Of a stretch of DNA of 64,000 bases, positions 29,487 through 47,834 are shown piece by piece. The number at the start of each line of letters is the position of its first letter. Position 1 is the first letter of the stretch. The translations under genes and the position numbers were made by a program. Below the pieces are notes generated by a model. It did no database searches. It was not told the DNA's origin and saw only the letters and a program-made list of their open reading frames with translations. Source of the stretch: Verrucomicrobiota bacterium (GTDB lineage: Bacteria; Verrucomicrobiota; Verrucomicrobiia; Chthoniobacterales; Chthoniobacteraceae); the NCBI GenBank assembly GCA_003402745.1, contig QQND01000005.1:1357-65356 (forward strand), read 5' to 3'.

Positions 29487-29562
29487 AAGCAAAAAAGAAT
29501 CCCGCGAAAGGGAGACAAAAGTCAAAAGCAGGTTCCACTTTTTACGCCGCCTCCGCAGCACT

Positions 29563-31017: not shown

Positions 31018-31145
31018 ACCGCGTCATACTTCACAGGGTCTCCACAGTGCGAAGTCCATTTTCAAGAATCTAGAAATATCTGGCCGCTCCAAGTCATGAG
31101 TCAGCGTTAGAAGCACGCAAGAGGCCACGCCCGCCAACCCCCGAA

Positions 31146-32228
31146 CTATTCCCACGCAGGTTTCTGGTTGAGAAAATTAGGCGAATATTCCGTGGGGTCG
31201 TAGGCCCGCACCCAGAGCGGGCTCGCAGCACCAGATATCGGCGGCACAAGCCAGTCCCAACGGCCCGTCACCGGCCGTCCACAGGCTTTCTCCTCCTCCT
31301 CAAACCGAACATGCAACTGCGCCGCTGTGTGGTGGTCGATCATCCTGACTCCCGCCTCCCGGAACGAATGCAACACCGCTCGATTAAGCTCAACCAACGC
31401 TTTGTCCCTCCACAACGATCCCTCCCTTTTTTCAAAAATTCCCATCCGCTCAGCGAGTTCAGGAAGCACATCATAACGGCTCCAGTCCGCAAGATTTCGA
31501 GCCCCAATTTCCGTTCCCATGTACCAACCGTTGAACGGAGCTGCTGGGTACCGGATGCCCCCGATTTCCAAAAGCATATTGGTCACCACCGGAACCGAAT
31601 ACCAGCGCAGCTCCATTTCCTTAAACCACAAAAATTCTGGGTGTTCCATTTTTACCTCTAAAACACTTTCCGGCGGCACTTCAAATACGGCGGGCCTCGC
31701 ACCCGGCCCAGAAACCACGATGGGTAGAACATCAAACCGACCCGGACGCTCCGGCGCATTCCATCCCAGGGTCTTACAGTGCTCTGTAAAGCGAGCTTCA
31801 GCAGGGTCGCCCAAAACCTCTCCATCTTCGGCCGCATATCCTGCGTATCGCACAAGTTGATAGTTCCAGACCCGCCAGGGCACCCGGCCGCGCTGGGCGG
31901 GAAAAACCGTAACCAGCGGCCGGACCGCACCGCCATTTGTCGCCAACTTCAAGTGCTCAACACATTTTTCCGCGAGACCCTCCGCGCACTCCGTTTGCCT
32001 CGCATCGCGAACCTCCAATTGTTTCCAAAAGTAACGGCCAATACAACGGACGCTGTGCCGCCAGGCGAACCGGCATCCCCATAGCAACTCTTCAGGGGTA
32101 TGCTCGTAAAAGCGGTGCCGATCAATTTCGCGAAGAACCGCGCTTCGCCGTGCAAGGGTCACCCCCGGCCCACCCTCCTCACTTTCCAAAAGATCCAAGA
32201 AAGCTTCGGCTTTTTGTTTTAACGACAT
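31146..32228 (-). CDS. nos: Nitric-oxide synthase, oxygenase domain only (bacterial NOS)
   Basis: 'AWRHSVRCIGRYFW', with the heme-thiolate Cys codon at 32045..32043. Also 'GWYMGTEIGARNLAD' and 'WLVPPISGA'. Length (about 360 aa from MSLKQK) fits bacterial NOSoxy, and no reductase domain is present. Confidence 0.85.
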   Translation of the reverse strand: MSLKQKAEAFLDLLESEEGGPGVTLARRSAVLREIDRHRFYEHTPEELLWGCRFAWRHSVRCIGRYFWKQLEVRDARQTECAEGLAEKCVEHLKLATNGGAVRPLVTVFPAQRGRVPWRVWNYQLVRYAGYAAEDGEVLGDPAEARFTEHCKTLGWNAPERPGRFDVLPIVVSGPGARPAVFEVPPESVLEVKMEHPEFLWFKEMELRWYSVPVVTNMLLEIGGIRYPAAPFNGWYMGTEIGARNLADWSRYDVLPELAERMGIFEKREGSLWRDKALVELNRAVLHSFREAGVRMIDHHTAAQLHVRFEEEEKACGRPVTGRWDWLVPPISGAASPLWVRAYDPTEYSPNFLNQKPAWE

Positions 32229-32330
32229 TCTGCCGCGTATCTTCAGGCGGCGGTAAACAGAAGCTGACGCACCATCGCCTGAGGCGGCTCCGGGCAAGAC
32301 TAGAGGGCACTCTGGCATTGCAAACGTAAA

Positions 32331-33170
32331 CTAATTTGCCGGACCGTCCGCGCTCAGACCGGCCTCTTCCCAAAGCTTCAATTCACTTTCTTTTTGGCCC
32401 AGAGTGCGGCGCAGTTTTGCAATCGCGTACTTTCCGAGCACCAGCCGCATTGGAGCATTCTCTGAGGCAACCACCTGCAGGATCGCATGAGCTGCCCGTA
32501 CCGCGTCGCCAGGCTGTTTTCCGTCCATCCCCCCAATGATCTTGGAAAACTTGCCGACGGACGATTCGTATTCAGAAAGGTTTCCAGAAGTTTTCTCCAA
32601 AGACCGGCTTATAAAATCAGTGCGGAACGGGCCCGGCTCAATGATCGTCACCTTCAACCCAAACGCACGCCCCTCCGCCGCAAGCGATTCGCTCATCCCT
32701 TCAAGCGCACACTTAGCTGCGCCATAGATTCCAAAGCCGGGATAGTTTGCGATTGCTGCCGCCGCGCTCATGTTTAGCACATGTCCGCCTTTCTGAGCTC
32801 GAAAGCTTGGAAGCAATTCTCGGATCATATTTAGCGCACCAAAGAAATTCACTTCGAAGATTCTCCGGATCTGGTCGTCCGAACTCTCCTCCAGAGACCC
32901 AAGCAGGCCGTAACCCGCATTGTTCACCAAGACGTCAATCCGCCCGAAAATGCTGAGCGAATCCGTGACCACCGTTTTTATATGATCCGGCAGCGTGACA
33001 TCGAGTTCAGCGATGTGAGCCGTTTTAGGCCATCGGGCTGCAAACTCAGCAATCGCAGAGATGTTTCTTGCTGTTACAATCACCCGCTCTCCCCGTTCTA
33101 GAGCGGTTTGGGCTAGTGCCCGGCCAAAGCCGCTTGATGCTCCCGTAATCAGCCATACTTTTTCAGACAT
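32331..33170 (-). CDS. Short-chain dehydrogenase/reductase (SDR)
   Basis: 'WLITGASSGFGRALA' (TGxxxGxG), 'NNAG' and 'YGAAKCAL' (YxxxK). Confidence 0.85.
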   Translation of the reverse strand: MSEKVWLITGASSGFGRALAQTALERGERVIVTARNISAIAEFAARWPKTAHIAELDVTLPDHIKTVVTDSLSIFGRIDVLVNNAGYGLLGSLEESSDDQIRRIFEVNFFGALNMIRELLPSFRAQKGGHVLNMSAAAAIANYPGFGIYGAAKCALEGMSESLAAEGRAFGLKVTIIEPGPFRTDFISRSLEKTSGNLSEYESSVGKFSKIIGGMDGKQPGDAVRAAHAILQVVASENAPMRLVLGKYAIAKLRRTLGQKESELKLWEEAGLSADGPAN

Positions 33171-33248
33171 GCGCTCGAATATCTGCCATTGTTCCACACA
33201 TGGCACGCATGAATTGGACGGCTCTGCGATCCGCGCAGCGATTGGGCA

Positions 33249-34514
33249 CTATCCGCGCAGCGGTTGGGAAACCCATCCGCAAAGCCACGAACGCAGATGA
33301 GACGGCATTCCTTCACTCTGGTGCGCAACAACCACAAGACAGGGGCCTCCCCCGAATACTGAAACTCCACCGCGGGCGTGGTTGACGGTGACGCTTAAAA
33401 ACCCGTCTTGTGCTCCATGCGTCAACGAAGCGCTCTCCAGGATTTTTTCCAGCCGAAACCGCGTCGTAGCCGCTTTTGTATCAACGCCCAGTTCTCCAGT
33501 TTGCATCGCGTCGTCTCCAAGCCACAAAGCAAATCCCCGCACCTCTGGAAATCGAGAGAGCGAGAGACCCAGCTCTTCAAACCGCATTTGCTGAAGAGCT
33601 GGAGGACCCAGAGAAATCTCCCCTTGCGCGCGCCCACCACTCGCCTTTTGAGGAACATCACTCGACAACAAGTGCCCTGATGATGGCACAGCCTCAGCCG
33701 CTTCAGCCGTTTTTTCCCGTTGAACGAATCCTACTTTTTCTGTTTCAAGAATCCGCAACGTTGGCGCAATTTGCCGCACAGGAGTCTGTGCCGGTGGCAC
33801 TATCCCGCTTGCGTACGCCTCCAAGATCTTTTTTAAACGGCCGCTTGCAGGAATCCCCGGCGAGGGAACCGTCGATTCCCGTGCCGTACCTTGGCTCTCA
33901 AGCTTAGGACTTGGCGCCTCAAACACCAGTAATTCGCCAAAAGCCGAAGAATCGACATTCTTTGAAACCGGCAATTCTACACTCCGCAGAGCCTTCGCGG
34001 TTTCCCGCGCTTCCCTCGACCGGGCCCGCTTCGTCTGAGTTTCCCCCTCCCAATGGGTAAACGTCTCAGATTCTATCTGCGCCTCGTCCAAGACCTCGGC
34101 AGGCACCTCGGTCAGCGCTGGCTCCGGTTCGCGCAACGGCTCCATCGCGAGATCCACCCCGATGTCTCTCTCCTTCACTCCCGGATCTCGGAAAAAATCA
34201 GGGTAGCATTTAACCAAATAACGCAAGGAATAGGCCAGTGGCCTTTCGGCACCCGCGTTTAAGCGCCCGGCCGCCTGCAGTGTGATCATCTGCTCCGGAA
34301 CCCATTCGCCGGAGCGCCTCCAAGCAGCCGGCACGCGCGCCATAAGGTCACCAAGCGTCAAACGATGCGCAGAGCCACGGGCGGCCTCCACAGGCACCTC
34401 TAGGGCCACAGCAGGCCGCGCTCCCGGACCGTCGATAGGCTCGAAAATAATATCCTCAGCTTTGGGAGCAGAACGGCCAACAAGCCCTCCCAACATACGG
34501 CGCAAAAAACCCAT
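33249..34514 (-). CDS. Hypothetical protein (about 421 aa)
   Basis: Long ORF with no family recognised. Start placed at ATG 34514 (MGFLRRMLGG), because the longer ORF would overlap the photolyase gene. Confidence 0.5.
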   Translation of the reverse strand: MGFLRRMLGGLVGRSAPKAEDIIFEPIDGPGARPAVALEVPVEAARGSAHRLTLGDLMARVPAAWRRSGEWVPEQMITLQAAGRLNAGAERPLAYSLRYLVKCYPDFFRDPGVKERDIGVDLAMEPLREPEPALTEVPAEVLDEAQIESETFTHWEGETQTKRARSREARETAKALRSVELPVSKNVDSSAFGELLVFEAPSPKLESQGTARESTVPSPGIPASGRLKKILEAYASGIVPPAQTPVRQIAPTLRILETEKVGFVQREKTAEAAEAVPSSGHLLSSDVPQKASGGRAQGEISLGPPALQQMRFEELGLSLSRFPEVRGFALWLGDDAMQTGELGVDTKAATTRFRLEKILESASLTHGAQDGFLSVTVNHARGGVSVFGGGPCLVVVAHQSEGMPSHLRSWLCGWVSQPLRG

Positions 34515-34605
34515 GTCTTCTTTGAAAGCGTGAAAGAGTGCCGGGTGCAAGCCATGGAATTCTGGAACCGCACGGAAAAAGGGGCGGCGAACCGCACCTC
34601 GGTCC

Positions 34606-36138
34606 TCAGCCCCCTTTAATCTGGGCTGCCTGCACGCGGACTGCCTCAAGGAACTCCGGGGTGAATCGGTCTAGGTTTTTGAGCTGAAGAGCCATGCGCT
34701 GGTTGCCCCCAAGCCTCGCCCTGTTCCTCGCCAAAAAATCCCAGTAAAGCGTGGTAAAAGGACAGGCCTTCTCACCCACAGAAAGCGCAGGGTCGTAAAT
34801 GCACCCACGGCAATAATCGCTCATTCGCTGTATGTATTTGCCGCTTGCGGCATAGGGCTTTGACGCCATGACACCGCCGTCTGCGTACTGCGACATTCCA
34901 ATCGTGTTCGGGATCTCCACCCATTCCACGGCATCGATATAGACCCCCAGATACCATTCATGAACCTCAATAGGCCGGACTCCCAGAAGCAAGGCGTAAA
35001 GGCCCGTCACCATGAGTCGCTGAATATGATGGGCATATCCAAGCTTCAGAGTCTGGCCAATCGCCTGCTTGAGACATTGCATGTCTGTTTCTCCTGTCCA
35101 ATAAAAAGCAGGTAACGCAGCGTGCGCCTCCAAAGCATTCGCCTCCAAATATCCGGGCATCGAACGCCAGTAAATGCCCCGAACATATTCCCTCCATCCC
35201 AGAATCTGACGAATAAACCCCTCCGCCGCGGCAATGGGAACCAATCCCAGATTCCAAGACTTCTCCGCAGCAGTGATGACTTCCAGCGGACAAATCAGCT
35301 TGAGGTTGAGCGCTGCACTGAGTCGCGCATGGTACAACCAAGGTTGCCCAGTCCACATGGCGTCTTGATACTGCCCGAAATAAGGCAGCCGGTTCGTGAT
35401 GAAATCCGAAAGCGCCTCCAGAGCCTGGTTGCGGGTCACAGGAAAGTCAAAATGCCTGCTCGTTCCGGGGGCCTCAGGTAACTCGCGGTCCACCATTTCT
35501 ATCACACTACGGGTCGTTGAATCAGGGGCAAAAGCAATAGGCGCTGGCAACAGTTCGGGCCCGTTTTTCCCAAAACCCCCTCGGTTCAGTGCATCAAAAT
35601 TCCACGCGCCTCCGGCCGGTTTTGCGCCCTCCATCAAAACACCAAGGCGTTGGCGCATCTCCCGATAAAAAAACTCCATGCGCAGCTGCTTGCGCCCTTT
35701 AGCATGTGCTTCAAATTGCCTGTGAGAGCACAGAAAATGGGGGTCCTCGAGCCAATCCCCCTCCCCGTTTGGCCAGAGAATCAAACGGAGTCCTTCGCGC
35801 AAGCGCCACTCCCCAGGCTCTACCGCGACAATCTCCTTCGGCCTGTGTTTTTCAATAAACCGTTCCAATGCACCAGACAGACTTCCCGCGTTATCCGGCG
35901 CCTGCAGTTCCGTGTACTCCACACGCCAACCCTTCGCCAACAAGCCATCTCTAAAGTGGCGCATCGCCGCTAAAAACATCACGATGCGTGCCTTGGAGCT
36001 GACCACATGCGTGGATTCCTCCCGCACCTCCGCCATCCAAATACAATCGATTTTGGGGTCGAATTGTGAAAACGCAGGAGAAGCCTCATCAAGTTGATCT
36101 CCAAAAACTACGACAAGCCGTCTAAGCATCCCCCTCAT
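34606..36138 (-). CDS. Cryptochrome/photolyase-family protein of the Fe-S (FeS-BCP / PhrB-CryB, (6-4)-type) class
   Basis: About 510 aa. 'LVVVFGDQL' N-terminus, 'YAHHIQRLMV', and a Cys set (C..'YCRGCIYDP'..'KACPFTTLYWDFL') arranged as in the 4Fe-4S photolyases. Confidence 0.8.
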   Translation of the reverse strand: MRGMLRRLVVVFGDQLDEASPAFSQFDPKIDCIWMAEVREESTHVVSSKARIVMFLAAMRHFRDGLLAKGWRVEYTELQAPDNAGSLSGALERFIEKHRPKEIVAVEPGEWRLREGLRLILWPNGEGDWLEDPHFLCSHRQFEAHAKGRKQLRMEFFYREMRQRLGVLMEGAKPAGGAWNFDALNRGGFGKNGPELLPAPIAFAPDSTTRSVIEMVDRELPEAPGTSRHFDFPVTRNQALEALSDFITNRLPYFGQYQDAMWTGQPWLYHARLSAALNLKLICPLEVITAAEKSWNLGLVPIAAAEGFIRQILGWREYVRGIYWRSMPGYLEANALEAHAALPAFYWTGETDMQCLKQAIGQTLKLGYAHHIQRLMVTGLYALLLGVRPIEVHEWYLGVYIDAVEWVEIPNTIGMSQYADGGVMASKPYAASGKYIQRMSDYCRGCIYDPALSVGEKACPFTTLYWDFLARNRARLGGNQRMALQLKNLDRFTPEFLEAVRVQAAQIKGG

Positions 36139-37748
36139 TTCGTCCCCTTCGGCCTAGTCTTAAATAAAATCCCCTCGAACTCGGTGCGAACCTTGTCCAA
36201 ATCCTGGGATGTCGGAGCTCCAGACAAACACAGCCGTACCTCACCCTTCTGGTTCACGACAAAAACCTCAATTGAAAAGCCCGGGCTGCAGAGCTGATTC
36301 ACATTTTTGGCGCTCCAATCCATCAGTACGGGCCACTGCGTGCCATCCCGGATCATCATCCGTACGGCGCCGTGAAAAATGGACGGGATGTTTCTCACGT
36401 CGGCCAAGCCCAGAATCTCGACGTTTGCGCCAAAAACATCGTGTATGGGTTTAACCCATGCGGCTATTTTACTCGTCCCTGAGCGGGACGATGCCACAAG
36501 CAATAAAGGCCGTTCTCGGGGAAAGCGTATCTCGTGCGGTTGCCCGACCTGATCCTCAAGAACCAAATCAGGACACCGCTCCGGCACCGCCTCAACAACA
36601 GATCCTGAGAGGCATAACAACATTCCAACCATAGGGAGGACACGTCCCCGCCAACCTACCGGCCTGCCCGTCCAAAAACGCAAAGCTCCGTACCATTGGT
36701 TGAGTAAGAGCGCGCCCACCGCGACAGGTTGCAGAAGCACTCCGGCAAGCGGTTGATTAAAACGAAACGCAAGCACACCACGTCCAGCAAACCCCAGCGC
36801 AAGAGCCAACAAAGCCCACCGCCCAGAGACTTTATCAAGATGCCCAGAAAGCAGACCAAGCAGCGGAAAAACCTGCCCGAAAAAAAGCAGCAGCCCAAAT
36901 GGTAGAACGCTTTTGGGGGAAGCTAGTCCCTCGTGCGCGTTCTTCGCAAAACCCCGCCACACTTCACCCAAGCCTGTGTACATACGGCAAACGGCAACTC
37001 CGCTTGCGTCGAATAAATCTGCAATCTTACCCGCCTTCCGAAAGGCGCGCGCAAGGCCGATCCCCTCGTGGAAACTCTGCTTGGTGATCTCGTGTCCGCC
37101 CACTTCAAAGTAAGCACTCCTGCGGATAAGCATCAACTGCCCACAAGCGGCCGCAAACCTGGGATCCGCTGTCGCCCGCATCCGTTGGAGCGGCAAAAAA
37201 CCCAGGAGCACAAAGTGGATCAAAGGAATGATCATGACCTCAGATAATGTTCCAAGTCTTTGCCATGGGATACCACTTAGAAGATCAAGTTCGGGACGAA
37301 GAAATGCAGCCGCCATTCGCGCGAGCGCATCGCCTCCTCGGAAGCGCACGTCCGCGTCCATGAAAACAAGAATGTCCCCCTTGGCTGCCTGCGCCAAACT
37401 CCAACATCCAAATGGCTTTCCAGCCCATCCTTGAGGAGGAGGAGTTCCTTTGAAAAAACCGACTCGAGAATCCTCAGCAGCAAGCAATTGAACAATTTCG
37501 GCCGTCGCATCTGTGGACCCATCATCCCAGACAAGCACTTCAAAATTTAGCCCCTCACAATGCAGCACAGATTCAATGGCCGCCCGGATATTTGCCTCCT
37601 CGTTCCTCGCAGGGATCAAGACAGAAACAGAGGGAACGTCCCTCACTGACGGGTCGCCAAGGGGCCGGTAAAGGCGCAGGTTCGCCACAATCATCGCAAC
37701 TGGAAGCGCCGCTGCTACACTGCAAAACATCATTACCGCAGGATTCAT
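36135..37748 (-). CDS. GT2 glycosyltransferase (CrtQ-like) with multi-TM region and a C-terminal redoxin-like domain lacking Cys
   Basis: 'VLIPARNEEANI', 'VWDDGSTDAT' and 'FMDADV' (DxD). Start ATG 37748 overlaps the upstream stop (ATGA), and the stop overlaps the photolyase start (36135..36138). Confidence 0.75.
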   Translation of the reverse strand: MNPAVMMFCSVAAALPVAMIVANLRLYRPLGDPSVRDVPSVSVLIPARNEEANIRAAIESVLHCEGLNFEVLVWDDGSTDATAEIVQLLAAEDSRVGFFKGTPPPQGWAGKPFGCWSLAQAAKGDILVFMDADVRFRGGDALARMAAAFLRPELDLLSGIPWQRLGTLSEVMIIPLIHFVLLGFLPLQRMRATADPRFAAACGQLMLIRRSAYFEVGGHEITKQSFHEGIGLARAFRKAGKIADLFDASGVAVCRMYTGLGEVWRGFAKNAHEGLASPKSVLPFGLLLFFGQVFPLLGLLSGHLDKVSGRWALLALALGFAGRGVLAFRFNQPLAGVLLQPVAVGALLLNQWYGALRFWTGRPVGWRGRVLPMVGMLLCLSGSVVEAVPERCPDLVLEDQVGQPHEIRFPRERPLLLVASSRSGTSKIAAWVKPIHDVFGANVEILGLADVRNIPSIFHGAVRMMIRDGTQWPVLMDWSAKNVNQLCSPGFSIEVFVVNQKGEVRLCLSGAPTSQDLDKVRTEFEGILFKTRPKGTK

Positions 37749-38545
37749 AAGCAGGAAGAGTGATTGAGTGCCGCCTTTTCCTTGTTCCACATTGCCTTGA
37801 AACGCCGCCACAAATCGTATGGGACAGAAACCCCACCTCGGCCCTGGAGAAGCGTTTCAAAAAGAGTTCCCTCTCTGTTGCAGGCCTCGGCGGCGAGCGC
37901 GTCCTGAATGCTCTCCAATCCCGCTTCCAGGCTCGCTTGCACCTCCGTGAAATTCGCTCCCAGACTCCTCCCGCTTTTCGCGGGACCGAACCGTAATATC
38001 ACCTCGGGATACCGTTCCTGACCAAATCCATATTCAATGGCAAGTGGCACGAACATGGCTTCCGGTTCTCTCACAGCAAGATGAGCAAGGCCAGCCGCAA
38101 AATTGACGGGCCGCTCACGAACATCGGCAAACCGCCCCTGAGGCGTGAGCCACAGCATCGCACCCGGCTGGGCAAGCAAGGCTCGTGAAGTGCGCAGAAA
38201 CGTCCGGGCACCCGAGACGGTTCCTTTTTCCACGCCAAACACTCCAAGATATTTAAAAAAACCGTACCGTTCCAATTGGGCTGCGTCTATCGGACCGAAT
38301 TGTGGGCGCCCCGGATAACAGCGCGCACCGAGCCACATCATTACGAGGGGATCCCACCACGAGGCGTGATTCAGATAAACCACGAGGGGCGTATTGTGTG
38401 AAACAAGAGGTGCGTGTCCCCCTTGAGTCATTCTAACGGCGTGAAAATTTCCTCGCAACGCCCTCTCAATGTATCCCAAAAAGCCAGCCAACAACACCGG
38501 TACGATTCTAGCGGGCGCTTGTTGGGAATTGCGAGCCGGTTTCAT
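37745..38545 (-). CDS. PlsC-family acyltransferase (CrtO-like)
   Basis: HX4D motif 'NHASWWDP'. Start placed at ATG 38545 (MKPARNS), 5 nt after the upstream stop. Confidence 0.75.
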   Translation of the reverse strand: MKPARNSQQAPARIVPVLLAGFLGYIERALRGNFHAVRMTQGGHAPLVSHNTPLVVYLNHASWWDPLVMMWLGARCYPGRPQFGPIDAAQLERYGFFKYLGVFGVEKGTVSGARTFLRTSRALLAQPGAMLWLTPQGRFADVRERPVNFAAGLAHLAVREPEAMFVPLAIEYGFGQERYPEVILRFGPAKSGRSLGANFTEVQASLEAGLESIQDALAAEACNREGTLFETLLQGRGGVSVPYDLWRRFKAMWNKEKAALNHSSCL

Positions 38546-38550
38546 GGCCG

Positions 38551-40092
38551 TTAAACGTGCACCTTCGGATTTTTTGGAACTGCCTTGTCTGCATCGAGCG
38601 CATCGGCAGCAATCCACCCGCTCATGAGCGCCATGGGCATTCCAGGACCGGGATGAGCGGAGCCCCCTGCGAGGTAAAGCCCTTTCACATCGGGACTCCG
38701 ATTTGAAGGCTTCAAAGAACCGCTGATTCTGCCGTGACTGGCCAGTCCATAAATCGCCCCATGAAGAACCTGATAGCGGTCCTGAATGTCCTGAGGCGTG
38801 AGTATTCGTTCTGTGACAATCCTCTCCTCAAGATCCTCTAAACCTGCGGTGCGCTTAAGCTTATCGATAATCGTACGCCTGTAAGCCGGAAGAATTACCT
38901 TCCAGTCCTGTCCCGGCCGCAGATAGGGGGTGTGCACAAGAACATACAGCGCTTCTCCCCCTTCAGGAGCCACACCGGGCTCCGTTCCCGAGGGAGCGCA
39001 GACATAGCACGTCGGATCAGGCGCGGGTATTCCTTGCTCATAGATCGCATCAAACTCGAGGTGCGGATCGGCACTGAAAACAAAGTTGTGGTGCAGAAGA
39101 TGCTCGTATCGCTTTTTTAAGCCGAGATACAAAACCACCCCCGAACACGCAGGCTCGTACTTGCGCCTCTTTTCAAACTTCCCTGCAACTGGTCCGCCGA
39201 GAAGATCCCTATGGGTGAGAACACTGTCTCGATTCGAAACCACTGCTGAGGCCGCAATTTTTTCTCCGGAAGAAGTTTCCACTCCGACCGTGCGCCCCTC
39301 CTCCACTAAGATCCGGGAGACGGAGACGCCAGTTTCGATTTTAACTCCGAGCTGGACCGCCAGTTTTTCCAGTGCCGCAGGAACAGCCGCAGTGCCTCCA
39401 CGCGGGTACCAAACCCCTTCGCTAGACTGCATGTGGGCGATCCCGCAGAGCACTGCCGGCGACAATTCTGGCGAAGATCCCACATACTGAGTGAAATGAT
39501 CCAGCATCTGGGTGACGCGTTCATCCGGTACGTAGGAACGGAGAAGTCCCGAAACGGTGCGCCCTAGTCGGATGGCCAGCACGTCTTGGAGGGAACCCGC
39601 GCGGACCATATCGCGCGCCGAAAACATATCCATCATTTTGCCGATGGGCCGCCAAAAGAAAACCCTCTCTGAGATATCGGACTGCCGCTTTGAGAGCTCT
39701 AAAAACTTCACGTAGCCATCGCCACTCTTCGTGCCCGGTGAAAATGCGTCTATCCGCTTCGCCATCTCCGGACCATCGGCAACAAGATCGAGCGTTGAGC
39801 CATCCTCGAAAAAACTGCGCCACTGCGGATCGAGACGGACCAAATCCAATTTGTCCTCCAGAGCTTGGCCTGCCTCGGCAAAAATACGCCGGAGCACCGA
39901 GGGAACGGTGACGATTGTCGGCCCCATGTCGAATCTAAAACCCTGCTCCTCATGAACAGCCGCCTTGCCTCCAAGCCAGCTGTTCGTTTCCAAAAGACGG
40001 ACCGTATAGCCTCTTGCTGCTAACGTGCAGCTCGCGGCAAGTCCTCCCAACCCCCCTCCGATTACCAAAATCTGATCCGTTTTTGTCTTCAT
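38551..40092 (-). CDS. Phytoene-desaturase-family oxidoreductase (CrtN/CrtP-like)
   Basis: 'ILVIGGGLGGLAASCTLAARGYTVRLLE' FAD fold and 'GLYLAGGSAHPGPGMPMA' C-terminal motif. Confidence 0.8.
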   Translation of the reverse strand: MKTKTDQILVIGGGLGGLAASCTLAARGYTVRLLETNSWLGGKAAVHEEQGFRFDMGPTIVTVPSVLRRIFAEAGQALEDKLDLVRLDPQWRSFFEDGSTLDLVADGPEMAKRIDAFSPGTKSGDGYVKFLELSKRQSDISERVFFWRPIGKMMDMFSARDMVRAGSLQDVLAIRLGRTVSGLLRSYVPDERVTQMLDHFTQYVGSSPELSPAVLCGIAHMQSSEGVWYPRGGTAAVPAALEKLAVQLGVKIETGVSVSRILVEEGRTVGVETSSGEKIAASAVVSNRDSVLTHRDLLGGPVAGKFEKRRKYEPACSGVVLYLGLKKRYEHLLHHNFVFSADPHLEFDAIYEQGIPAPDPTCYVCAPSGTEPGVAPEGGEALYVLVHTPYLRPGQDWKVILPAYRRTIIDKLKRTAGLEDLEERIVTERILTPQDIQDRYQVLHGAIYGLASHGRISGSLKPSNRSPDVKGLYLAGGSAHPGPGMPMALMSGWIAADALDADKAVPKNPKVHV

Positions 40093-41573
40093 TGTACGTT
40101 TTTGTTTTTTAAACTTTTGCGTGCCTCCCTCCAGGCCAGCACACCACTCTTAATCAGAGAAACTACGCCCGTAAGCCTCGCCCAAATTCCGTTCCCGTGT
40201 GTCAGCCGTATCATTGCCATGGCGAGATCGGCACTGACCTCCTCCGGTTCCAAATGGGCCATTGAGCCCCCGTTGCGAACCTGCAGGACCTTGATGCGCG
40301 TGAGCTCTAGCAATCCCTCTGCTCCGCGCGTCACTCCGTAACCACTACGGCCGGAGCCTCCAAATGGAATTCGAGGATCTGCACTCGGCACAATCAGATC
40401 ATTGACCGTAACCAGCCCGGCGCGAACTTTCAATGCCATCTCGGAGGCTGCGCCAAGGTCCGTTGAAAAAACCGATGCGCCTAGCGCGTATTCACACTGT
40501 GCTGCGGCAGCAAGGGCTTCAGCATCGGAATCTACGGCAATTATACAAAGAATTGGCGAAAAAAAATCTCCGAGATCAGCCATCAGATCGGAAGGCACAT
40601 CCGTGAGCACGTAGGGAGCATCGCTTGTCTCATTTGCTGTATCGCCATAGACAATCCGGGCGCCTCGTCTTAATGCCTCCGCGCGCCATAGGCTAAGAGC
40701 GCTAGACTTCCCAGCGGAGCTCGTTGAAAAGAGCCGGCAGTTCATGGAGTCGAAAGCATCTTTTATTGCCGATTCCAATTCTGCGGCTCGTCCCCGTTCC
40801 ACAAACACCCGCCTCGGAGCCAGACAGGTGCGGCTCTGGTTGAAGGTGAGTCCAAAGCGGAGCGCCTTTGCCACAAGCGTGACGTCGGCATCGCCTCGGA
40901 CAAACACAGCGTCGCAACCCGACAACTCTAGAACCGCTGGAATCGCCCTTTGGGAAAGCGCTTGCAACACCTTTGTTCCGTTAGCAAAGCCTCCGGTGAA
41001 AACAACTTTGTCCACCGGTTCTTTTAACAAAGCTGCACCAGCCTCAACCGTGTCCTCGAGAACAATCAGCAAACCCGCTGGAAGACCGGCTTCTGCACCC
41101 AATTCCGCCAAACGCTGCGCAACGGCACCGCCCCCTGGCGCGGGTTTCCAAACCACTGCATTTCCAGCCACGAGCGCTTGAAGAACTTGGACACCACCTA
41201 GAAAAAGCGGGTAGTTCGAGGGCGAAATAATCGACACCACACCGAGAGGTTCCCTGTGAATTTCAGACCGAACTCCTCCGAGCCACCAAGGCCTGCCACG
41301 GCTCCCCAAAGAACGCCGCGCAAGAAGCTTAACAGCATTCTCTTCAAGGAACACGCAGGCCTCCAGCAACGGAAGAACCTCGGAGAGTAAGACCTCGTGA
41401 ATCGGGTGAGAACTTGAAGCCCCTGCCTCCGCTAAAACTCCACACGAATCTGAAATCCGCCCCCGCAACCTGCGCAACACAAGCAAGCGGGATTCAACCG
41501 AGCCTTGACGCCAACTCCATTGGGCTGCGCGGGCCTGTGCTACGCCTTCCGCAATGTTTGGCGCGACCCTCAT
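40089..41573 (-). CDS. Aldehyde dehydrogenase (carotenoid-aldehyde dehydrogenase-like)
   Basis: 'ELSGCDAVFV' and 'FNQSRTCLAPRRVFV' (catalytic Glu/Cys contexts). The stop overlaps the downstream start (ATGA at 40089..40092). Confidence 0.8.
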   Translation of the reverse strand: MRVAPNIAEGVAQARAAQWSWRQGSVESRLLVLRRLRGRISDSCGVLAEAGASSSHPIHEVLLSEVLPLLEACVFLEENAVKLLARRSLGSRGRPWWLGGVRSEIHREPLGVVSIISPSNYPLFLGGVQVLQALVAGNAVVWKPAPGGGAVAQRLAELGAEAGLPAGLLIVLEDTVEAGAALLKEPVDKVVFTGGFANGTKVLQALSQRAIPAVLELSGCDAVFVRGDADVTLVAKALRFGLTFNQSRTCLAPRRVFVERGRAAELESAIKDAFDSMNCRLFSTSSAGKSSALSLWRAEALRRGARIVYGDTANETSDAPYVLTDVPSDLMADLGDFFSPILCIIAVDSDAEALAAAAQCEYALGASVFSTDLGAASEMALKVRAGLVTVNDLIVPSADPRIPFGGSGRSGYGVTRGAEGLLELTRIKVLQVRNGGSMAHLEPEEVSADLAMAMIRLTHGNGIWARLTGVVSLIKSGVLAWREARKSLKNKNVQ

Positions 41574-41773
41574 GACGCCTCTCTACAAAAATGCCGGCCC
41601 GCTTGCCGCAAATGCGTCTCCGCAAGCCGGCGCCCCGCCCGGACGAACACGCCGCGGTCCCCCCGGACGCGACAGGCTCCCATGACGGGACGACGGCTTG
41701 CAGAGACAACGAGCGCGTTTCCCCAGTGCCGACGGATAACTCTTGGTGCTGATTCGATCACAGAAAATGTGTT

Positions 41774-43357
41774 CTAGCAATGGGAACCCGCTCTGGAGGC
41801 CAATTTGGAGGCGATCGAGCCCCATTCTTGCGTAATGCTGGACTCGAGGTTGAAGTGAGGCTCAGCAACAGGGCTCGGAACCCCAAAGTCTTCGCACAAA
41901 AGCCGGGAGGTGATTCGAGCCCCCTCGTAAATAACGGGCAACCCGCTTCCTGGGTGTGTGCCTCCACCCACGAGATACATTCCATCAATGTCCTCGAAAC
42001 GATTGCGGGGACGAAAATGAAGCATTTGAGAAAGCGTATGGGCCAGATTAAAGGTCGCCCCCTTGTGGATGGAAAAACCATTCTCCCATTCGTCCGGCGT
42101 CAGCATTTTCTCGTATCGGATCCGCTTCCGCAGTCCACTAAAACCCGCCGCCTCCGCGGCCACGAGAAGTCGTTCGCGGAACGCCACCTTGTCTGCCTGC
42201 CAGTTGATGTTCGCGGTTTGATGCGGAACTGGCGCGAGCAAATAAAGCGTGCTGCTACCACTGGGCGCCAGCGACGGATCGGTCACACACGCATTTTGAA
42301 CGTAAAATGAAGGCTCGGAGGGTAATACTTTTAGATCTTCGATCTCCCTCAAGTTTTGCCGGTACTGGCTGGAAATCTGGATGGTGTGATGCGGCATATC
42401 CGGATATTCCCCCTCCACTCCGAGATAGAGCATAAAGGTAGAACACGAGTACTGCTTCGTTTCCAGTTTCGCGTCTGTCCAATTCCTGCGAAGTTTGTCG
42501 GGAACCAAGTGCCCCATGGCATGCGCAAAATCAGCATTCAGCACAACTGCGTCGGCATGGTACATGCCCGCCTTGGTGCGCACTCCCGTGACTCTGCGGC
42601 CACTAAATCGGAGGTCTTCCACCGGTTCGTTGAGACGCACATCCACCCCCATGCGCTGCGCAACACGGGCCATCGCCTGACTCACTTCGCCACAGCCACC
42701 AACGGGATGCCACACCCCATAATCGTATTCCAAGTAGCTGAGAATGCTGAACAAACTGGGACACCGGAATGGAGACATTCCGAGGTACTTGCTTTGAAAG
42801 CTGAAAGCCAAACGGACGCGCTCGTCGGAGAAAAATTTATGCAGGTAACCGTCCACCGACTCCCAGGGCCGTATATGGGGCAGGGAAGAAATCACCTCTT
42901 TGGCCAAGAGACTTCCCCAACCTAAAAACGGCCGCTCCAAGCAGGATCGGATACCGTTGAACTTGGCGCGATTGTCATCCAAAAAACGCCGAAACCCCCC
43001 CTCGTCCGCCGGGCAAATCTGCGCTATTTGCCGCTCCATCTCCTCCGGATTCGGAGTCGCATCTATTTTCCCGCCCGTTCCAAACTGAATTCTGTACTGG
43101 GGATCCAGACGGATCATCTCAACTTCCTTCCGCAAATTGGTTCCCGCGGCGCGAAGGATTTCGTCGAGGATTTTGGGATATAGAAAGAAGGTCGGCCCGA
43201 GGTCGAACCGGAAACCCTCCTCCTCAATGGACGAAGTCCTTCCTCCAACAGTCGTCATTTTCTCGAGCACCGTCACCCGAAAACCGGCCGCCCCAAGGAG
43301 GATAGCAGAGGCCAAGCCACCCGGTCCGGCACCAACGATAACAATTTCTTGTGCCAT
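41774..43357 (-). CDS. Phytoene-desaturase-family oxidoreductase (CrtN/CrtI-like)
   Basis: 'IVIVGAGPGGLASAILLGAAGFRVTVLE' and 'MYLVGGGTHPGSGLPVI'. Confidence 0.8.
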   Translation of the reverse strand: MAQEIVIVGAGPGGLASAILLGAAGFRVTVLEKMTTVGGRTSSIEEEGFRFDLGPTFFLYPKILDEILRAAGTNLRKEVEMIRLDPQYRIQFGTGGKIDATPNPEEMERQIAQICPADEGGFRRFLDDNRAKFNGIRSCLERPFLGWGSLLAKEVISSLPHIRPWESVDGYLHKFFSDERVRLAFSFQSKYLGMSPFRCPSLFSILSYLEYDYGVWHPVGGCGEVSQAMARVAQRMGVDVRLNEPVEDLRFSGRRVTGVRTKAGMYHADAVVLNADFAHAMGHLVPDKLRRNWTDAKLETKQYSCSTFMLYLGVEGEYPDMPHHTIQISSQYRQNLREIEDLKVLPSEPSFYVQNACVTDPSLAPSGSSTLYLLAPVPHQTANINWQADKVAFRERLLVAAEAAGFSGLRKRIRYEKMLTPDEWENGFSIHKGATFNLAHTLSQMLHFRPRNRFEDIDGMYLVGGGTHPGSGLPVIYEGARITSRLLCEDFGVPSPVAEPHFNLESSITQEWGSIASKLASRAGSHC

Positions 43358-43371
43358 TCAATAAGATCCTG

Positions 43372-43575
43372 TTACAGGGGCGTCTTCAAGCCGCACGCCC
43401 GAGCGACGCACCAGCCTTTGAAAGCCTCAAAAAGCATGAACAAGCCGCTCCCACCCAGAGCCACCGCTGCAACCATGTGATCCCGCAAAAAAAACGCTCC
43501 GCCCAGGCAGCACAGCCCGCAAGCACCGCGAACCAAACGGCCGAGACGATCGATGTTTTGCTTGAAGAAACTCAT
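43372..43575 (-). CDS. DUF2892 (YgaP-like) small membrane protein
   Basis: 67 aa with two hydrophobic helices and the terminal 'FKGWCVARACGLKTP' typical of DUF2892. Confidence 0.6.
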   Translation of the reverse strand: MSFFKQNIDRLGRLVRGACGLCCLGGAFFLRDHMVAAVALGGSGLFMLFEAFKGWCVARACGLKTPL

Positions 43576-43637
43576 AAGAGGCGGATGCGTATTTTGAGGG
43601 TGGTCTCTGGGCCGGAAAAGGTCGATACGTTCCCAGT

Positions 43638-43670
43638 CTGCGAAAATTTTGTCAATGTATTGTTTAAGTA
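43638..43670 (-). promoter_or_regulatory. Candidate CarH-type operator: three tandem 11-bp direct repeats overlapping a TTGACA -35-like hexamer
   Basis: The minus strand reads TACTTAAACAA TACATTGACAA AATTTTCGCAG. Repeats 1 and 2 fit nAnnTnnACAn at 5 of 5 fixed positions, and repeat 3 at 4 of 5. TTGACA lies at 43655..43650. Confidence 0.55.
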
Positions 43671-43738
43671 TCTCGAGGAAATGAGTTGATATTGGTTGAT
43701 TTTGTCTATCTTACTGTTCAACTTTACGACAGTCTGAC

Positions 43739-44692
43739 ATGCCCACTTCCGTTTCCATTCAAACCGTTGCCGAACGGACCGGCCTCACGCCCCACGCCAT
43801 CCGAGCCTGGGAGAGGCGCTATGGAGCGATCGAACCGGCCCGCTCAAAAGGCCGCCATCGAATGTATTCGGATTCTGACGTGCGGAGACTGGCACTCCTC
43901 GCTCGCGCAACTCGGGCGGGCAAGTCGATCGGCCGCATCGCACGCTTGGACGACGAAGAATTGAGCGCCATTGTTGCGGAGACTTCGCACAGCACCGCAC
44001 AGTCCTTGAGTGGATGCTTGGATGGAACGCACCGGTTGGCAGAGGCCGCGTTTTTTGAGAATGCGCTGCAGGCGATTCTAGCCCTGGATACGCAGTCGCT
44101 GGACGATACGTTTCAGGCGGCGCAGGTCAAACTGGGGGATCAAGGCTTGCTGAGACGCTTGATCACCCCTTTGGCGAGGGAGGTGGGCGGTCGATGGCGT
44201 ACCGGCCAACTCACCGCGGCTCAAGAGCATTTTTTCACCGCGATGTCCAAGGTGTTTCTGTGGAATCTCACCAGGCAGTACCAACTGGACGCGCATGCCC
44301 CAAAGATCGTGGTGGGAACGCCTGCGGGACAAATCCACGACCTAGGCGCTGTGATTGTGGCTGCTGCAGCCGCAAACAACGGCTGGCGTGTTTCTTACGT
44401 TGGAGCGAGCCTGCCGGCTTTTGAGCTCGCTGGGGCAGTGCAAACGGTTGGTGCCAGGGCAATCGCCCTCAGCATCGTGTACCCCGATGATGACCCAAAA
44501 CTGGAAATAGAACTCTCAAAACTTGGGCGCTTACTCCCCGAGAACGTCCATTTTTATGTCGGTGGCCGGGCCTCGAGTTTTTACCTGCCGGCGCTCAAGC
44601 GTTGTGGAGCCCGCGTACTGGGCTCGCTCGAGGAACTCGACGAAGAATTGGACACAGCTCGAAGAACATCCAATCGCCCCTCACTACCATGA
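43739..44692 (+). CDS. carH: CarH/LitR-type light-responsive regulator (MerR HTH + B12-binding domain)
   Basis: MerR HTH 'IQTVAERTGLTPHAIRAWERRYG'. Wx9EH motif 'WRTGQLTAAQEH' (W codon 44195, EH 44225..44230). B12 lower-ligand context 'GQIHDLGA' (His codon 44336..44338). Confidence 0.85.
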   Translation: MPTSVSIQTVAERTGLTPHAIRAWERRYGAIEPARSKGRHRMYSDSDVRRLALLARATRAGKSIGRIARLDDEELSAIVAETSHSTAQSLSGCLDGTHRLAEAAFFENALQAILALDTQSLDDTFQAAQVKLGDQGLLRRLITPLAREVGGRWRTGQLTAAQEHFFTAMSKVFLWNLTRQYQLDAHAPKIVVGTPAGQIHDLGAVIVAAAAANNGWRVSYVGASLPAFELAGAVQTVGARAIALSIVYPDDDPKLEIELSKLGRLLPENVHFYVGGRASSFYLPALKRCGARVLGSLEELDEELDTARRTSNRPSLP

Positions 44693-45168
44693 TGAATTCA
44701 AAATCGAAGAGCATCCATGAGGAGCAGTGGGTGCCCTTGTCGCAGGACAAAGTATTCGCCTTTTTCTCCAACGCCGAAAACCTCGAAAAGGTAACCCCAC
44801 CTTGGGTCGGATTCCGCATTCTCACAAGCACCCCTATTGTCATGGCTGCCGGAATCATGATCGATTACGAAGTGCGAATCCACCGGCTTCCAATGCGCTG
44901 GCGTTCGGAAATTACCGAATGGGTTCCCCCGCATCATTTTGTTGACGTGCAACGCAAGGGGCCCTACTCGGAATGGAAGCACCGCCACTCTTTCCGCGAA
45001 CTCAATGGCGGGACCTTGGTGACAGATGATGTGGAGTATCTCGTTCCCCTGAGTTGGATGCCCGGGGCGGGATTAGTAGAACGGTTTTTGGTGCGCCCGG
45101 AGCTAAACCGGATTTTCGCGCACCGGCGCTCCGCACTGCGGACGCACTTTGGTTTGCCGCCGGAATGA
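44689..45168 (+). CDS. SRPBCC (START/cyclase-dehydrase-like) family protein
   Basis: About 159 aa with the start overlapping the carH stop (ATGA). 'FFSNAENLEKVTPPW', 'F.D.Q.KGPY..W.H.H.F' pattern. Confidence 0.65.
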   Translation: MMNSKSKSIHEEQWVPLSQDKVFAFFSNAENLEKVTPPWVGFRILTSTPIVMAAGIMIDYEVRIHRLPMRWRSEITEWVPPHHFVDVQRKGPYSEWKHRHSFRELNGGTLVTDDVEYLVPLSWMPGAGLVERFLVRPELNRIFAHRRSALRTHFGLPPE

Positions 45169-45347
45169 GTGCGCCACCACTCTCGACGAACAGCCTTCCA
45201 TTTTTACAGCAGAAAAGCGTCTCGCGAAAAAACAGTCCGTATCTAAATAATGCCCGACTCAAGCCGACGATTTTAGACAGATCTCCCCTTTCCTTCGGAA
45301 TTCAATACTCTCTCCGCTCCCCAAAAACGCAGCAAAACCCTTTAAGC

Positions 45348-46544
45348 ATGCACGATATCAGTCACTCCACACCACTGCCTGGAAAACTTAGCAACGCATA
45401 CAGCCACAGAACTTTCCCGCCCTTCAGCCTGAGCCGCCTGCTGAACACCGTGTTCACCCCAACTCAGGGCTTAAGCGTATGCATCCTCATCGATCTTCCA
45501 GAGCCCGCTTTGATGAAGGATTTTTCCTTTTTGAAAGAGACAAAACTTACGATTCAACGCCATGCCTATGACGTGTTTTTTCAAGGACTCAAGGAAGGCG
45601 TACTCGCAGAGTTGGGGATGTCGGGCGGAGAAATGTTCGCGTATGCTCTCACTGGAGGAAGCAACTTGGATTTACCGGAAACCTGTATCAATGCGGCTGG
45701 TGAGTCGCTTTCCTTTGAAGAAGCAGTCTACAAAAAATACAATCTTGTTCTCTGCGTTTCCACGTACTCAGCCACAGCACCTCTCACGGCCTCGGCCAAA
45801 AAATTTGGGTTCCGCGGCGCTACGCTCCACGGACTGAATGAGATCATCCTGAGCTCCGGGCTTTCGGTGGATTACAATGAAGTGAGCGTTCTGGCGGAGC
45901 GCTTTCGGTCTGGACTCACACGCGCAGACCGCGTTGAGATCGACTTCGTAGCCGGGGGCGAGGCCGCGACACTCCGGCTTGAACTTGGGGGCCAGGAGGC
46001 GCAAAAAAGCCACGGCCTGTGTCCTGGTACGGAACCCGACGTCGCAAACTTGCCTGCCGGAGAAGTCTATTTTGTGCCAGTCACTGCGGAAGGCGCGTTG
46101 CCAATGAAATACGAAGACGGAACCCTAGGCATGATGACTGTCACTGAAGGGCGGATCGTGCACGCACGCCTCCTTTCGGGTTCTGCCGCCACCATCGAGG
46201 CGCACAACGCAAAACTCGCGTTTGATCCCGTCACGGGCGAGTTGGGAGAACTTGGTTTTGGCACCCAGGAACTGCCCCCCAGCGGCCGCGACATTCAGGA
46301 TGAGAAAATCCTAGGCACGCTTCATGTCGCCACCGGACGCAGCGACCATCTTGGAGGCACGCTGACCCCCGATCGGTTCGCAAGCCGCCTGAATGCCACG
46401 CACGATGACGTCCTGTTTAGCTCGACCAAGACCCCCGAGATCCGCGTCCCTCAGGCGCGTGTTTACCGGGCGGGAGAAGTCCACTCAGTGATTGAGGATT
46501 ACTTGCCATCCGCCTACGTTAGACAGCTAATGGCAGGTCAGTAG
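45348..46544 (+). CDS. M29 (aminopeptidase T/PepS)-like protein
   Basis: 'NLPAGEVYFVP', 'ELGFGT' and 'DEKILGTLHVATG' resemble M29 blocks. Start placed at ATG 45348, because the longer ORF overlaps the SRPBCC gene. Confidence 0.5.
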   Translation: MHDISHSTPLPGKLSNAYSHRTFPPFSLSRLLNTVFTPTQGLSVCILIDLPEPALMKDFSFLKETKLTIQRHAYDVFFQGLKEGVLAELGMSGGEMFAYALTGGSNLDLPETCINAAGESLSFEEAVYKKYNLVLCVSTYSATAPLTASAKKFGFRGATLHGLNEIILSSGLSVDYNEVSVLAERFRSGLTRADRVEIDFVAGGEAATLRLELGGQEAQKSHGLCPGTEPDVANLPAGEVYFVPVTAEGALPMKYEDGTLGMMTVTEGRIVHARLLSGSAATIEAHNAKLAFDPVTGELGELGFGTQELPPSGRDIQDEKILGTLHVATGRSDHLGGTLTPDRFASRLNATHDDVLFSSTKTPEIRVPQARVYRAGEVHSVIEDYLPSAYVRQLMAGQ

Positions 46545-46560
46545 TGCCCAAGAAAGCAGC

Positions 46561-46644
46561 GGCCCGCACGCAAGTCTGGCGCGAGCGCAGGAAGGACGAT
46601 TCTTTACTGCGACGGACAGAACCTTTTGTGCGGGCCTTTTTTTT
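46561..46644 (+). terminator. Long imperfect hairpin closed by a 9-bp GC stem and followed by T8 (terminator or attenuator-like)
   Basis: GGCCCGCAC (46561..46569) pairs with GTGCGGGCC (46628..46636). Inner pairs are TCTG/CAGA and CGCAG/CTGCG. T8 lies at 46637..46644, 2 nt before the kinase ATG. Confidence 0.4.
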
Positions 46645-46646
46645 CA

Positions 46647-47834
46647 ATGAACTCAGGTTTTTTAGACAAACTGATCGAGCGCATCGGCCGTGTCCGCTCG
46701 GAAGATCTCGAAAGTTATCTGCTGCGACTGGCGGATGAAAAAGGGTTTTTAGAAACCATTTTCAATGCCATTCACGAGGGCGTGATCGTCACAGATCTCC
46801 AAGGACGCATCAGTTATATCAACCGGGGCGCCTGTGAGTTGTTCGGTTTGGACAGAGAAGGTTCCATGAACTCGCCCATCGGGGAATGTTTGCGCGGAAT
46901 TGCTTGGGGGGAGTTGCTCGGAGACGGGAAGGTTGTGTCGCGCGATGTGGAAGTTTTTTATCCGCAGCATCGGTTTGTGAATTTTTATATCGAACCGATG
47001 CGCCTCGAAAAACCGGCTGCGAGACGTTCCTCAGAGGGCTTTGAATGTGAGCCGGTAGGTTTTGCGGTCATCCTTCGCGACATTACCGAAAACCGGCGTT
47101 CCACGGAGGAAACCATCCACAGCGAACAATTGTCTGCTCTGACTTTGCTCGCGGCCGGAGTGGCTCATGAAATTGGAAACCCTCTAAATTCTCTCAACAT
47201 CCACCTCCAACTCTTAGACAGGAAACTCAAGAGAGTCGACGATCCCGTTCGGAGGGAGATGAAGGACGTGCTAGACATTGCTCGGGGTGAAATAGAGCGT
47301 CTCGATTCTATTGTCAGGCAGTTCCTTGGCGCCATCCGTCCCGCACAACTGGAGCTTGGTTTAGAAAACATCAACACCTTGATCCGCGAGACCGTGGACT
47401 TCCTGCGGCAGGAAATTGCGGACCGCGATATCCGGGTAGAGAAGCATCTTCGCGCGGATCTTCCGCTGGCAGAGGTGGACAAAACTCAGATCAAGCAGGC
47501 GTTTTTTAATGTCATCAAAAACGCCGTGCAGGCGATGCGCCCGGGCGGCGTGCTCCACATCGCTTCCACCCAGGAAAACCAATTCATCAAGATCACTTTC
47601 CGCGACACGGGCGGGGGGATTTCACCGACGGATATGAGCAAGATCTTCGATCCGTACTTTACCACGAAGAAAAGCGGATCAGGCCTGGGATTGCTGATTG
47701 TCAGGAGGATCGTTCGCGAACATGGGGGTGAAATCGACCTTGTCTCCCACGACGGAGAAGGGCTCGAGTTCACAATCCGCCTGCCAGTGAGGGATCAGCG
47801 GGCGCGCCTTCTTCCCCCCTCCACCTCCGCCTAA
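46647..47834 (+). CDS. PAS-domain sensor histidine kinase (NtrB/AtoS-like, cytoplasmic)
   Basis: PAS 'LETIFNAIHEGVIVTDLQGRISYINRGACELFG'. H-box 'LAAGVAHEIGNPLNSL'. HATPase 'FRDTGGGI' and 'GSGLGLLIVRRIV'. Confidence 0.85.
   Translation: MNSGFLDKLIERIGRVRSEDLESYLLRLADEKGFLETIFNAIHEGVIVTDLQGRISYINRGACELFGLDREGSMNSPIGECLRGIAWGELLGDGKVVSRDVEVFYPQHRFVNFYIEPMRLEKPAARRSSEGFECEPVGFAVILRDITENRRSTEETIHSEQLSALTLLAAGVAHEIGNPLNSLNIHLQLLDRKLKRVDDPVRREMKDVLDIARGEIERLDSIVRQFLGAIRPAQLELGLENINTLIRETVDFLRQEIADRDIRVEKHLRADLPLAEVDKTQIKQAFFNVIKNAVQAMRPGGVLHIASTQENQFIKITFRDTGGGISPTDMSKIFDPYFTTKKSGSGLGLLIVRRIVREHGGEIDLVSHDGEGLEFTIRLPVRDQRARLLPPSTSA

Follow-up and report, generated by a model that had tools for sequence, protein, structure and literature searches.

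Tandem 11-bp direct repeats as a predicted CarH operator upstream of carotenoid and photolyase genes in a Verrucomicrobiota bacterium

Genes and features of the locus

The window, by which is meant the whole 64,000-nucleotide stretch of DNA that was analysed, has its closest genomes among Chthoniobacteraceae MAGs (Verrucomicrobiota) from lakes. Within it, a 163-bp intergenic region separates the regulator gene carH from a divergently orientated gene for a small YgaP-like membrane protein, behind which lies a string of carotenoid and photolyase genes recognised with Pfam and NCBIfam (Table 1). In every group A locus, that is, in the window and the eight orthologous loci that share its arrangement (see below), the YgaP-like gene is found at this place. 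Shared strand and spacing lead us to infer that the ygaP, crt and photolyase genes are co-transcribed, and the string can be read as a pathway to a glycosylated and acylated carotenoid combined with photorepair, a cargo typical of CarH. No convincing terminator was detected at the end of the operon, where terminator-like matches occurred at chance level.

Table 1. Coordinates of the genes and sequence features discussed (positions in the window)
Feature	Positions	Strand	Remarks
Photolyase-related protein (DPRP)	34606..36138	-	
GT2 glycosyltransferase	36135..37811	-	
Acyltransferase	37745..38617	-	
Second CrtI-family enzyme	38551..40092	-	
Aldehyde dehydrogenase	40089..41573	-	
CrtI-family desaturase	41774..43357	-	
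Carotenoid and photolyase gene string (the six genes above)	34606..43357	-	Pfam and NCBIfam
YgaP-like membrane protein	43372..43575	-	67 aa; Pfam PF11127; first gene of operon; ATG at 43575
Candidate weak -10, GAACGT	43627..43632	-	17 nt after -35; 2/6 match to consensus
DR3 ('dr', pseudo-repeat), AATTTTCGCAG	43638..43648	-	4/5 fixed positions of nAnnTnnACAn; within promoter spacer
DR2, TACATTGACAA	43649..43659	-	5/5 fixed positions; candidate -35 hexamer inside
Candidate -35, TTGACA	43650..43655	-	Candidate crt operon promoter; conserved in all orthologues
DR1, TACTTAAACAA	43660..43670	-	5/5 fixed positions; just upstream of candidate -35
Possible second site O2	43702..43720	-	TGAACA 43720..43715 plus AAGATAGACAA 43712..43702; oriented like DR1-3
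carH	43739..44692	+	317 aa; MerR-type HTH, four-helix bundle with Wx9EH, Rossmann B12-binding domain

Genes on the same strand run on past the DPRP gene (28515..34649, minus strand), the first of them coding for a 466-aa protein without assigned function, followed by an SDR (32331..33206), a bacterial nitric-oxide-synthase oxygenase-domain protein (31146..32318; PF02898, 7.7e-142), a PLP-dependent decarboxylase (29563..31017) and a 2-hydroxyacid dehydrogenase (28515..29561). Within the carotenoid gene string itself, a GC-rich non-coding gap of 200 bp (41574..41773) separates the CrtI-family gene from that for the aldehyde dehydrogenase; it is of the same size in loci L010 and L013, and no repeat, Rfam match or operator-like site was found in it. 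On the other side of the intergenic region, carH is followed (44602..47834) by genes for an SRPBCC protein (Polyketide_cyc), a protein of ~398 aa without Pfam match and a PAS/HisKA kinase, an arrangement common to loci of groups A and B (the window, L010, L013 and L015-L018). Rfam searches of the intergenic region at a lax threshold and of the whole window returned nothing, a cobalamin riboswitch included, and a tRNA search was likewise negative.

The divergent regulator

The carH product matched the Pfam families MerR_1, B12-binding_2 and B12-binding, with an N-terminal MerR-type winged helix (PF13411, 5.6e-16; PF00376, 6.6e-9) and a four-helix-bundle subdomain (PF02607). Among solved structures it is matched best by Thermus thermophilus CarH, 3WHP and 5C8D/5C8E/5C8F (E ~1e-23, both domains), while the DNA-binding domain also aligns to Myxococcus CarA (2JML). 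The carH product and Thermus CarH have the recognition-helix region R-WERRYG and the wing HR-YS in common.

The earlier note had credited this regulator with the photochemical motif Wx9EH and with a B12-ligand His, and both were found: the Wx9EH is intact (WRTGQLTAAQEH) and aligned to the Thermus motif, and 21 homologues with identities down to 39% all retain residues W153, E163, H164 and H200. It is the intact Wx9EH that separates CarH from CarA, which is without its Trp (PMC9304148). The B12 motif, counted on the translation, reads QIHDLG-x41-SIV-x27-GG, with the His ligand in QIHDLG; the His, Gly, Ser, Val and GG of this motif are also invariant in the 21 homologues. One position deviates, in that the CarH motif of the literature, D/ExHx2G-x41-SxT/V-x22-27-GG, begins with Asp or Glu (PMC9304148), whereas residues 198-203 here read QxHxxG, the Gln being invariant in the 21 homologues and present in the distant locus L008 too.

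The NCBIfam model TransRegCarH was the best match to the protein, scoring 111.9 bits where the cut-off is 400; because that model appears tuned to a narrow clade, the low score was read as a measure of distance and not as exclusion. The MerR-type domain, the intact Wx9EH and the Rossmann B12 motif, its Gln apart, place the product of 43739..44692 with CarH and class I LitR, and by analogy with that family it would be an AdoCbl-dependent photoreceptor-repressor that binds AdoCbl, oligomerises and is relieved by light.

The repeat array and its chance expectation

Read on the minus strand, positions 43670..43638 consist of three 11-bp direct units, TACTTAAACAA, TACATTGACAA and AATTTTCGCAG. The earlier note had described them as three tandem repeats fitting the CarH operator pattern, with all five fixed positions matched in the first two and four in the third, and had placed TTGACA (43655..43650) inside the second repeat, ~75 nt upstream of the first operon ORF; sequence, coordinates and match counts were reproduced on re-examination, the one mismatch being a G at position 8 of DR3 and the distance exactly 75 nt. 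The pattern itself is in print as the CarH direct-repeat consensus, nAnnTnnACAn (PMC8156234), and elsewhere as nnnnTnnACAn (PMC9304148). When both strands of the window (128 kb) were searched for three consecutive nAnnTnnACAn units with no more than two mismatches, 43638..43670 was the single occurrence, and the same search of shuffled sequence gave 0/100.

Chance was recalculated with the intergenic region's own composition because the region is AT-rich, and the analytic expectation for three-unit sites with no more than one mismatch in those 163 bp was then 8e-5. DR3 by itself is weak evidence, the probability of at least four matches in five being 0.03. No inverted repeats occur in 43560..43760, and a palindromic MerR site was therefore rejected. 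A further match, to TnnACA-N5-TnnACA at 31030..31046 (plus strand), is GC-rich, lies on the opposite strand and has a chance expectation of 0.64; it was therefore treated as a chance event.

A plainer reading of the array is that it belongs to an ordinary constitutive promoter, with TTGACA as its -35 and DR1, a conserved A/T-rich block, as an UP-like element or polymerase contact, that the agreement with the CarH consensus is accidental, and that CarH acts elsewhere. TTGACA itself satisfies TnnACA, so that any good -35 supplies one 'repeat', and the AT-richness of the region also speaks for this reading. Against it, even with TTGACA assumed from the outset, so good a fit at the remaining 11 fixed positions has a probability of 6e-5.

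Conservation across carH-upstream regions

The region upstream of carH was compared in 16 loci, the window and 15 others; genome and metagenome protein scans gave few close relatives, and most of the orthologous loci were obtained via exact-protein look-ups. In the nine loci of group A (the window plus eight), carH is divergent from ygaP and crt genes, and the CarH proteins of the other eight are 94, 83, 69, 68, 65, 63, 63 and 63% identical to that of the window. In an unguided MAFFT alignment, two stretches stood out as identical against a diverged background, namely a TAGACA near carH and the DR1-DR2 block.

Two group A loci, L012 and L020, carry TTGACA followed 11 bp on by TCTACA or TTGACA, and the comparison was accordingly made in two registers: in register 1 the first TTGACA of these loci was put in the DR1 slot, and in register 2 the pair was placed in the DR2 and DR3 slots, by its distance of 52 bp from the carH-side TAGACA. 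In either register two full, tandem, in-phase 11-bp units are kept in 9/9 group A loci, and in both registers three slots stand above background.

In register 1, positions A2, T5, A8, C9 and A10 of DR1 are invariant in 9/9 loci, with an information content of 2.00 at fixed positions against 0.91 at n positions; its cores are TAAACA, TGAACA, TTCACA and TTGACA, and the n positions vary. The corresponding values were 1.80 against 1.20 for DR2 and 0.85 against 0.60 for the DR3 slot, with 0.25-0.5 in the flanking slots. In register 2, DR1 matches at all five fixed positions in seven loci, DR2 at four or five in all nine, and DR3 at between three and five in all nine. A fourth repeat was not found on either side of DR1-DR3 in any of the nine loci, the flanking slots matching at 0-2 of the five fixed positions, which in register 2 compares with a chance expectation of 1.5.

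The TTGAC[A/G] of DR2 is kept in 9/9 loci. The n positions of DR2 (TG) are conserved too, unlike those of DR1, as would be expected if DR2 were constrained twice over, once as a repeat and once as a -35; part of the DR2 conservation signal is simply that of a good -35. The sequence of DR3, on the other hand, varies even in the locus with a 94% identical CarH, where it reads AATTCGCGCAG and matches at 3/5. The earlier note had proposed conservation of the 11-bp phase in orthologous carH-crt regions as a test that could refute the operator; units 1 and 2 passed it in nine loci, while the sequence of unit 3 was not conserved.

Spacing was equally constrained. Among the T..AC[A/G] pairs of the 16 regions, 13 were at 11 bp and five at 12 bp, with other spacings almost never seen, and essentially all such motifs lay on the crt strand. 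In a 14-locus subset, the 11 pairs observed at 11 bp compared with a shuffle mean of 0.17, a number reached in 0/2000 shuffles; because the loci are related these counts do not represent independent events, although the intervening sequence has nevertheless diverged. The comparison as a whole thus yielded two full, in-phase 11-bp direct repeats, situated in the divergent carH/ygaP-crt intergenic region and conserved in nine loci.

Group B (L001/L016, L002, L003, L007 and L017) consists of five loci with CarH proteins 60-63% identical to that of the window, in which carH is divergent from ygaP and adjacent crt genes are missing. Tandem repeats were not found at the ygaP promoter of these loci, where the -35 carries no more than single repeat-like units, and the predicted three-slot operator is therefore specific to the clade with crt genes after ygaP. 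The group B ygaP promoter takes the form TAGACA/TTGACA-N16-17-(TAGGTT/AAAGTT/GAAGTT/GAGGTT/TAATCT). The carH promoter of the same group is apparently TTGAAC-N16-TCTAAT, which ends ~8 nt before the start codon and suggests that the group B carH mRNA may be leaderless.

For the array in the window, an ordinary constitutive promoter is favoured by group B, which at the equivalent promoter exhibits A-rich sequence plus a single TAGACA or TTGACA in place of tandem units. Against it, all five consensus positions of DR1, the C included, are invariant and the positions next to them vary, a requirement that an UP element does not impose, while the strict 11-bp phase, the orientation on a single strand across loci and the presence of a divergent carH are what an operator would lead one to expect. 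A constitutive promoter is considered improbable.

The candidate crt promoter

The earlier note had also drawn attention to the overlap of a CarH repressor with the -35, and published CarH operators do carry the -35 hexamer within one repeat (PMC9304148, PMC8156234), pseudo-repeats ('dr') being tolerated (PMC9304148). In the window, the TTGACA within DR2 is followed 17 nt downstream by an nAnnnT hexamer. Orthologues have GAAAGT, GAATCT, GAGGCT and ATTATG at the same spacing, such that nAnnnT is present in 4/5. A sigma-70 consensus scan of 43300..43900 returned neither promoter nor terminator, and for this reason the -10 was deduced from the conserved spacing: GAACGT may be a weak -10, with transcription perhaps starting near 43620. 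Given the poor -10 and the negative consensus scan, TTGACA is itself put forward as a candidate -35 only.

This arrangement bears on a second alternative, according to which CarH does bind 43638..43670 but by some other logic, either as a B12-independent, CarA-like repressor working with an antirepressor or as a MerR-type activator. In its favour, both class II LitR proteins and paralogues that work without B12 (CarA) belong to the family (PMC9304148, PMC9758184), a promoter with so weak a -10 might require activation, and the B12 motif begins with Gln instead of Asp or Glu. Classical MerR activation, on the other hand, involves a (pseudo)palindrome at the centre of an over-long spacer of 19-20 bp between -35 and -10, and the repeats here are direct and the spacer 17 nt long; this spacer, together with the absence of an inverted repeat, argues against the activator mode and fits repression by occlusion. 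A CarA-like mode is opposed by the Trp of Wx9EH, which CarA lacks (PMC9304148), and by the His ligand, SxV and GG, all of them present and invariant. Either form of this alternative is accordingly thought unlikely, about as much so as a constitutive promoter.

Predicted operator function

The repeats and their significance, their position-specific conservation and 11-bp phase, and the architecture and motifs of the regulator are together best explained if 43638..43670 is the operator through which the divergent, AdoCbl-dependent CarH represses the ygaP-crt-photolyase promoter, a prediction from sequence that agrees with the reading in the earlier note and in which considerable confidence can be placed. 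Binding of AdoCbl, oligomerisation, occupancy of the site, repression and relief by light would then all proceed as in the characterised homologues (PMC9304148, PMC8156234, PMC4557120). In the dark, AdoCbl-bound CarH would form oligomers (tetramers in characterised homologues) and engage the array with one MerR-type domain per 11-bp repeat, DR1 and DR2 serving as full sites and DR3 as a weak one. By covering the -35 and the spacer, a stretch of the crt promoter from about -48 to -16, the bound protein would block RNA polymerase. Light would cleave the Co-C bond of AdoCbl, whereupon the oligomer would dissociate and vacate the operator, and the carotenoid and photolyase genes could then be transcribed.

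Regulators of the OmpR/PhoB type likewise use tandem direct repeats, spaced ~11 bp apart, and the synteny of carH with the genes for the SRPBCC protein, the protein without Pfam match and the PAS/HisKA kinase is conserved, but assignment of the repeats to a different regulator, for example a response regulator partnering that kinase, is the least probable alternative of all, since the loci read contain no response regulator gene adjacent to the kinase, the repeats follow precisely the consensus published for CarH, and the carH product shares its recognition-helix residues with Thermus CarH.

Comparison with characterised CarH systems

The predicted CarH operator resembles that of Thermus thermophilus CarH (LitR; DNA-bound tetramer 5C8E) in consisting of three tandem 11-bp nAnnTnnACAn units with the -35, here a candidate, within one of them (PMC8156234, PMC9304148); one DNA-binding domain is accommodated by each 11-bp repeat, of which Thermus has three and Bacillus four (PMC8156234). 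Both organisms have a divergent carH-crt intergenic region and a regulator built from MerR, Wx9EH and B12 Rossmann modules. They differ in that a full, conserved repeat occurs only twice here, alongside one pseudo-repeat, in that the proteins are distantly related (E ~1e-23 over two aligned domains), and in the B12 motif, which is QxHxxG here and ExHxxG in Thermus. Moreover, the -35 of the Thermus operator belongs to the regulator's own promoter, whereas that in the window appears to serve the crt operon promoter.

The Pcrt operators of myxobacteria (Myxococcus, Cystobacter, Sorangium and Haliangium) share with the window a mixture of DR and dr units and a TTGACA located in one DR (PMC9304148). 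Myxobacterial CarH directly represses the carotenoid operon, and in vitro binding extends to arrays in which drs accompany one or two DRs (PMC9304148); the same holds for operators of this mixed make-up in general (PMC9304148, PMC8156234). By way of contrast, the myxobacterial arrays comprise four or five units spread over ~55 bp, compared with three slots here; the crt operon of Cystobacterineae includes carH, which in the window is divergent from it; and no CarA or CarS partners are evident in the window. In Bacillus megaterium, as appears to be the case here, the -35 or -10 is overlapped by tandem DRs of 11 bp, and one dr is tolerated (PMC9304148), but the operators have four units in place of three slots; the CarH of this organism is an AdoCbl-dependent tetramer (PMC9304148), and its photolysed form a dimer. 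The closest published design appears to be the myxobacterial 'DR + dr' form that directly represses the crt operon, matched here in a three-slot size like that of Thermus.

The array is thus very probably a further example, in an uncultured Verrucomicrobium, of the well-understood CarH switch, with no new mechanism implied and the known one left unchanged by these results. No report of CarH/LitR regulation in Verrucomicrobiota was found in the literature searched, and the prediction would extend the CarH operator design of tandem 11-bp repeats, each bound by one domain, to this phylum and to a freshwater lineage resembling Chthoniobacteraceae. If correct, it implies light-induced, B12-dependent expression of pigment and photolyase genes in these uncultured bacteria, which bears on the ecology of B12 in lakes. 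The comparative data support the nAnnTnnACAn recognition code independently and on purely evolutionary grounds, and likewise the sufficiency of two full repeats plus one degenerate repeat. As another natural operator variant, 43638..43670 could moreover find use in CarH-based optogenetic tools.

A possible second site in the carH promoter

Between the array and carH lies a second conserved pair of repeat-like units, O2, with the form TGAACA-N6-TAGACA. Within it, the 11-mer AAGATAGACAA conforms to nAnnTnnACAn and shows 91% identity to the core of DR2; the internal spacing is 12 bp, except in L011 where it is 11 bp. The TAGACA of O2 is invariant in 14 loci, and in 9/9 group A loci it is separated from the -35, measured T to T, by 52-53 bp (~five helical turns), the intervening sequence having diverged. 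Candidates for the carH promoter in the same region are TTGATT (43696..43701) -N17- CAACTT (43719..43724), or TTGATA -N15- TATCTT.

Autoregulation is common in the CarH family. O2 may accordingly be an autoregulatory CarH site within the carH promoter, and could equally be part of that promoter itself. A bipartite control element, in which O1 (DR1-DR2-dr3) on the crt promoter and O2 in the carH promoter together switch both divergent promoters, is a tentative proposal, considered less likely than not. Were it true, CarH oligomers would occupy O1 and O2 on one face of the DNA, either through cooperative binding or via the DNA-binding domain left free in a Thermus-type tetramer, and the 12-bp spacing of O2 and the invariant Gln of the B12 motif would represent lineage-specific variations.

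Arrays upstream of more distant carH genes

Two loci with more distant CarH proteins also carry repeat arrays on the minus strand upstream of carH. In L008 (CarH 39% identical), three canonical repeats at ~2880..2915, AAGCTTGACAA, GACTTAGACAA and AGTCTGTACAA, span TTGACA-N18-TACAAT from -35 to -10; downstream of them come ORFs for small membrane and fasciclin-like proteins and not crt genes. In L004 (CarH 48% identical), five (G/T)(A/T)(T/G)AC(A/C) units are grouped around a TTGACA at ~3850..3920 with spacings of 11, 12, 9 and 11 bp, forming a looser array of roughly helical period.
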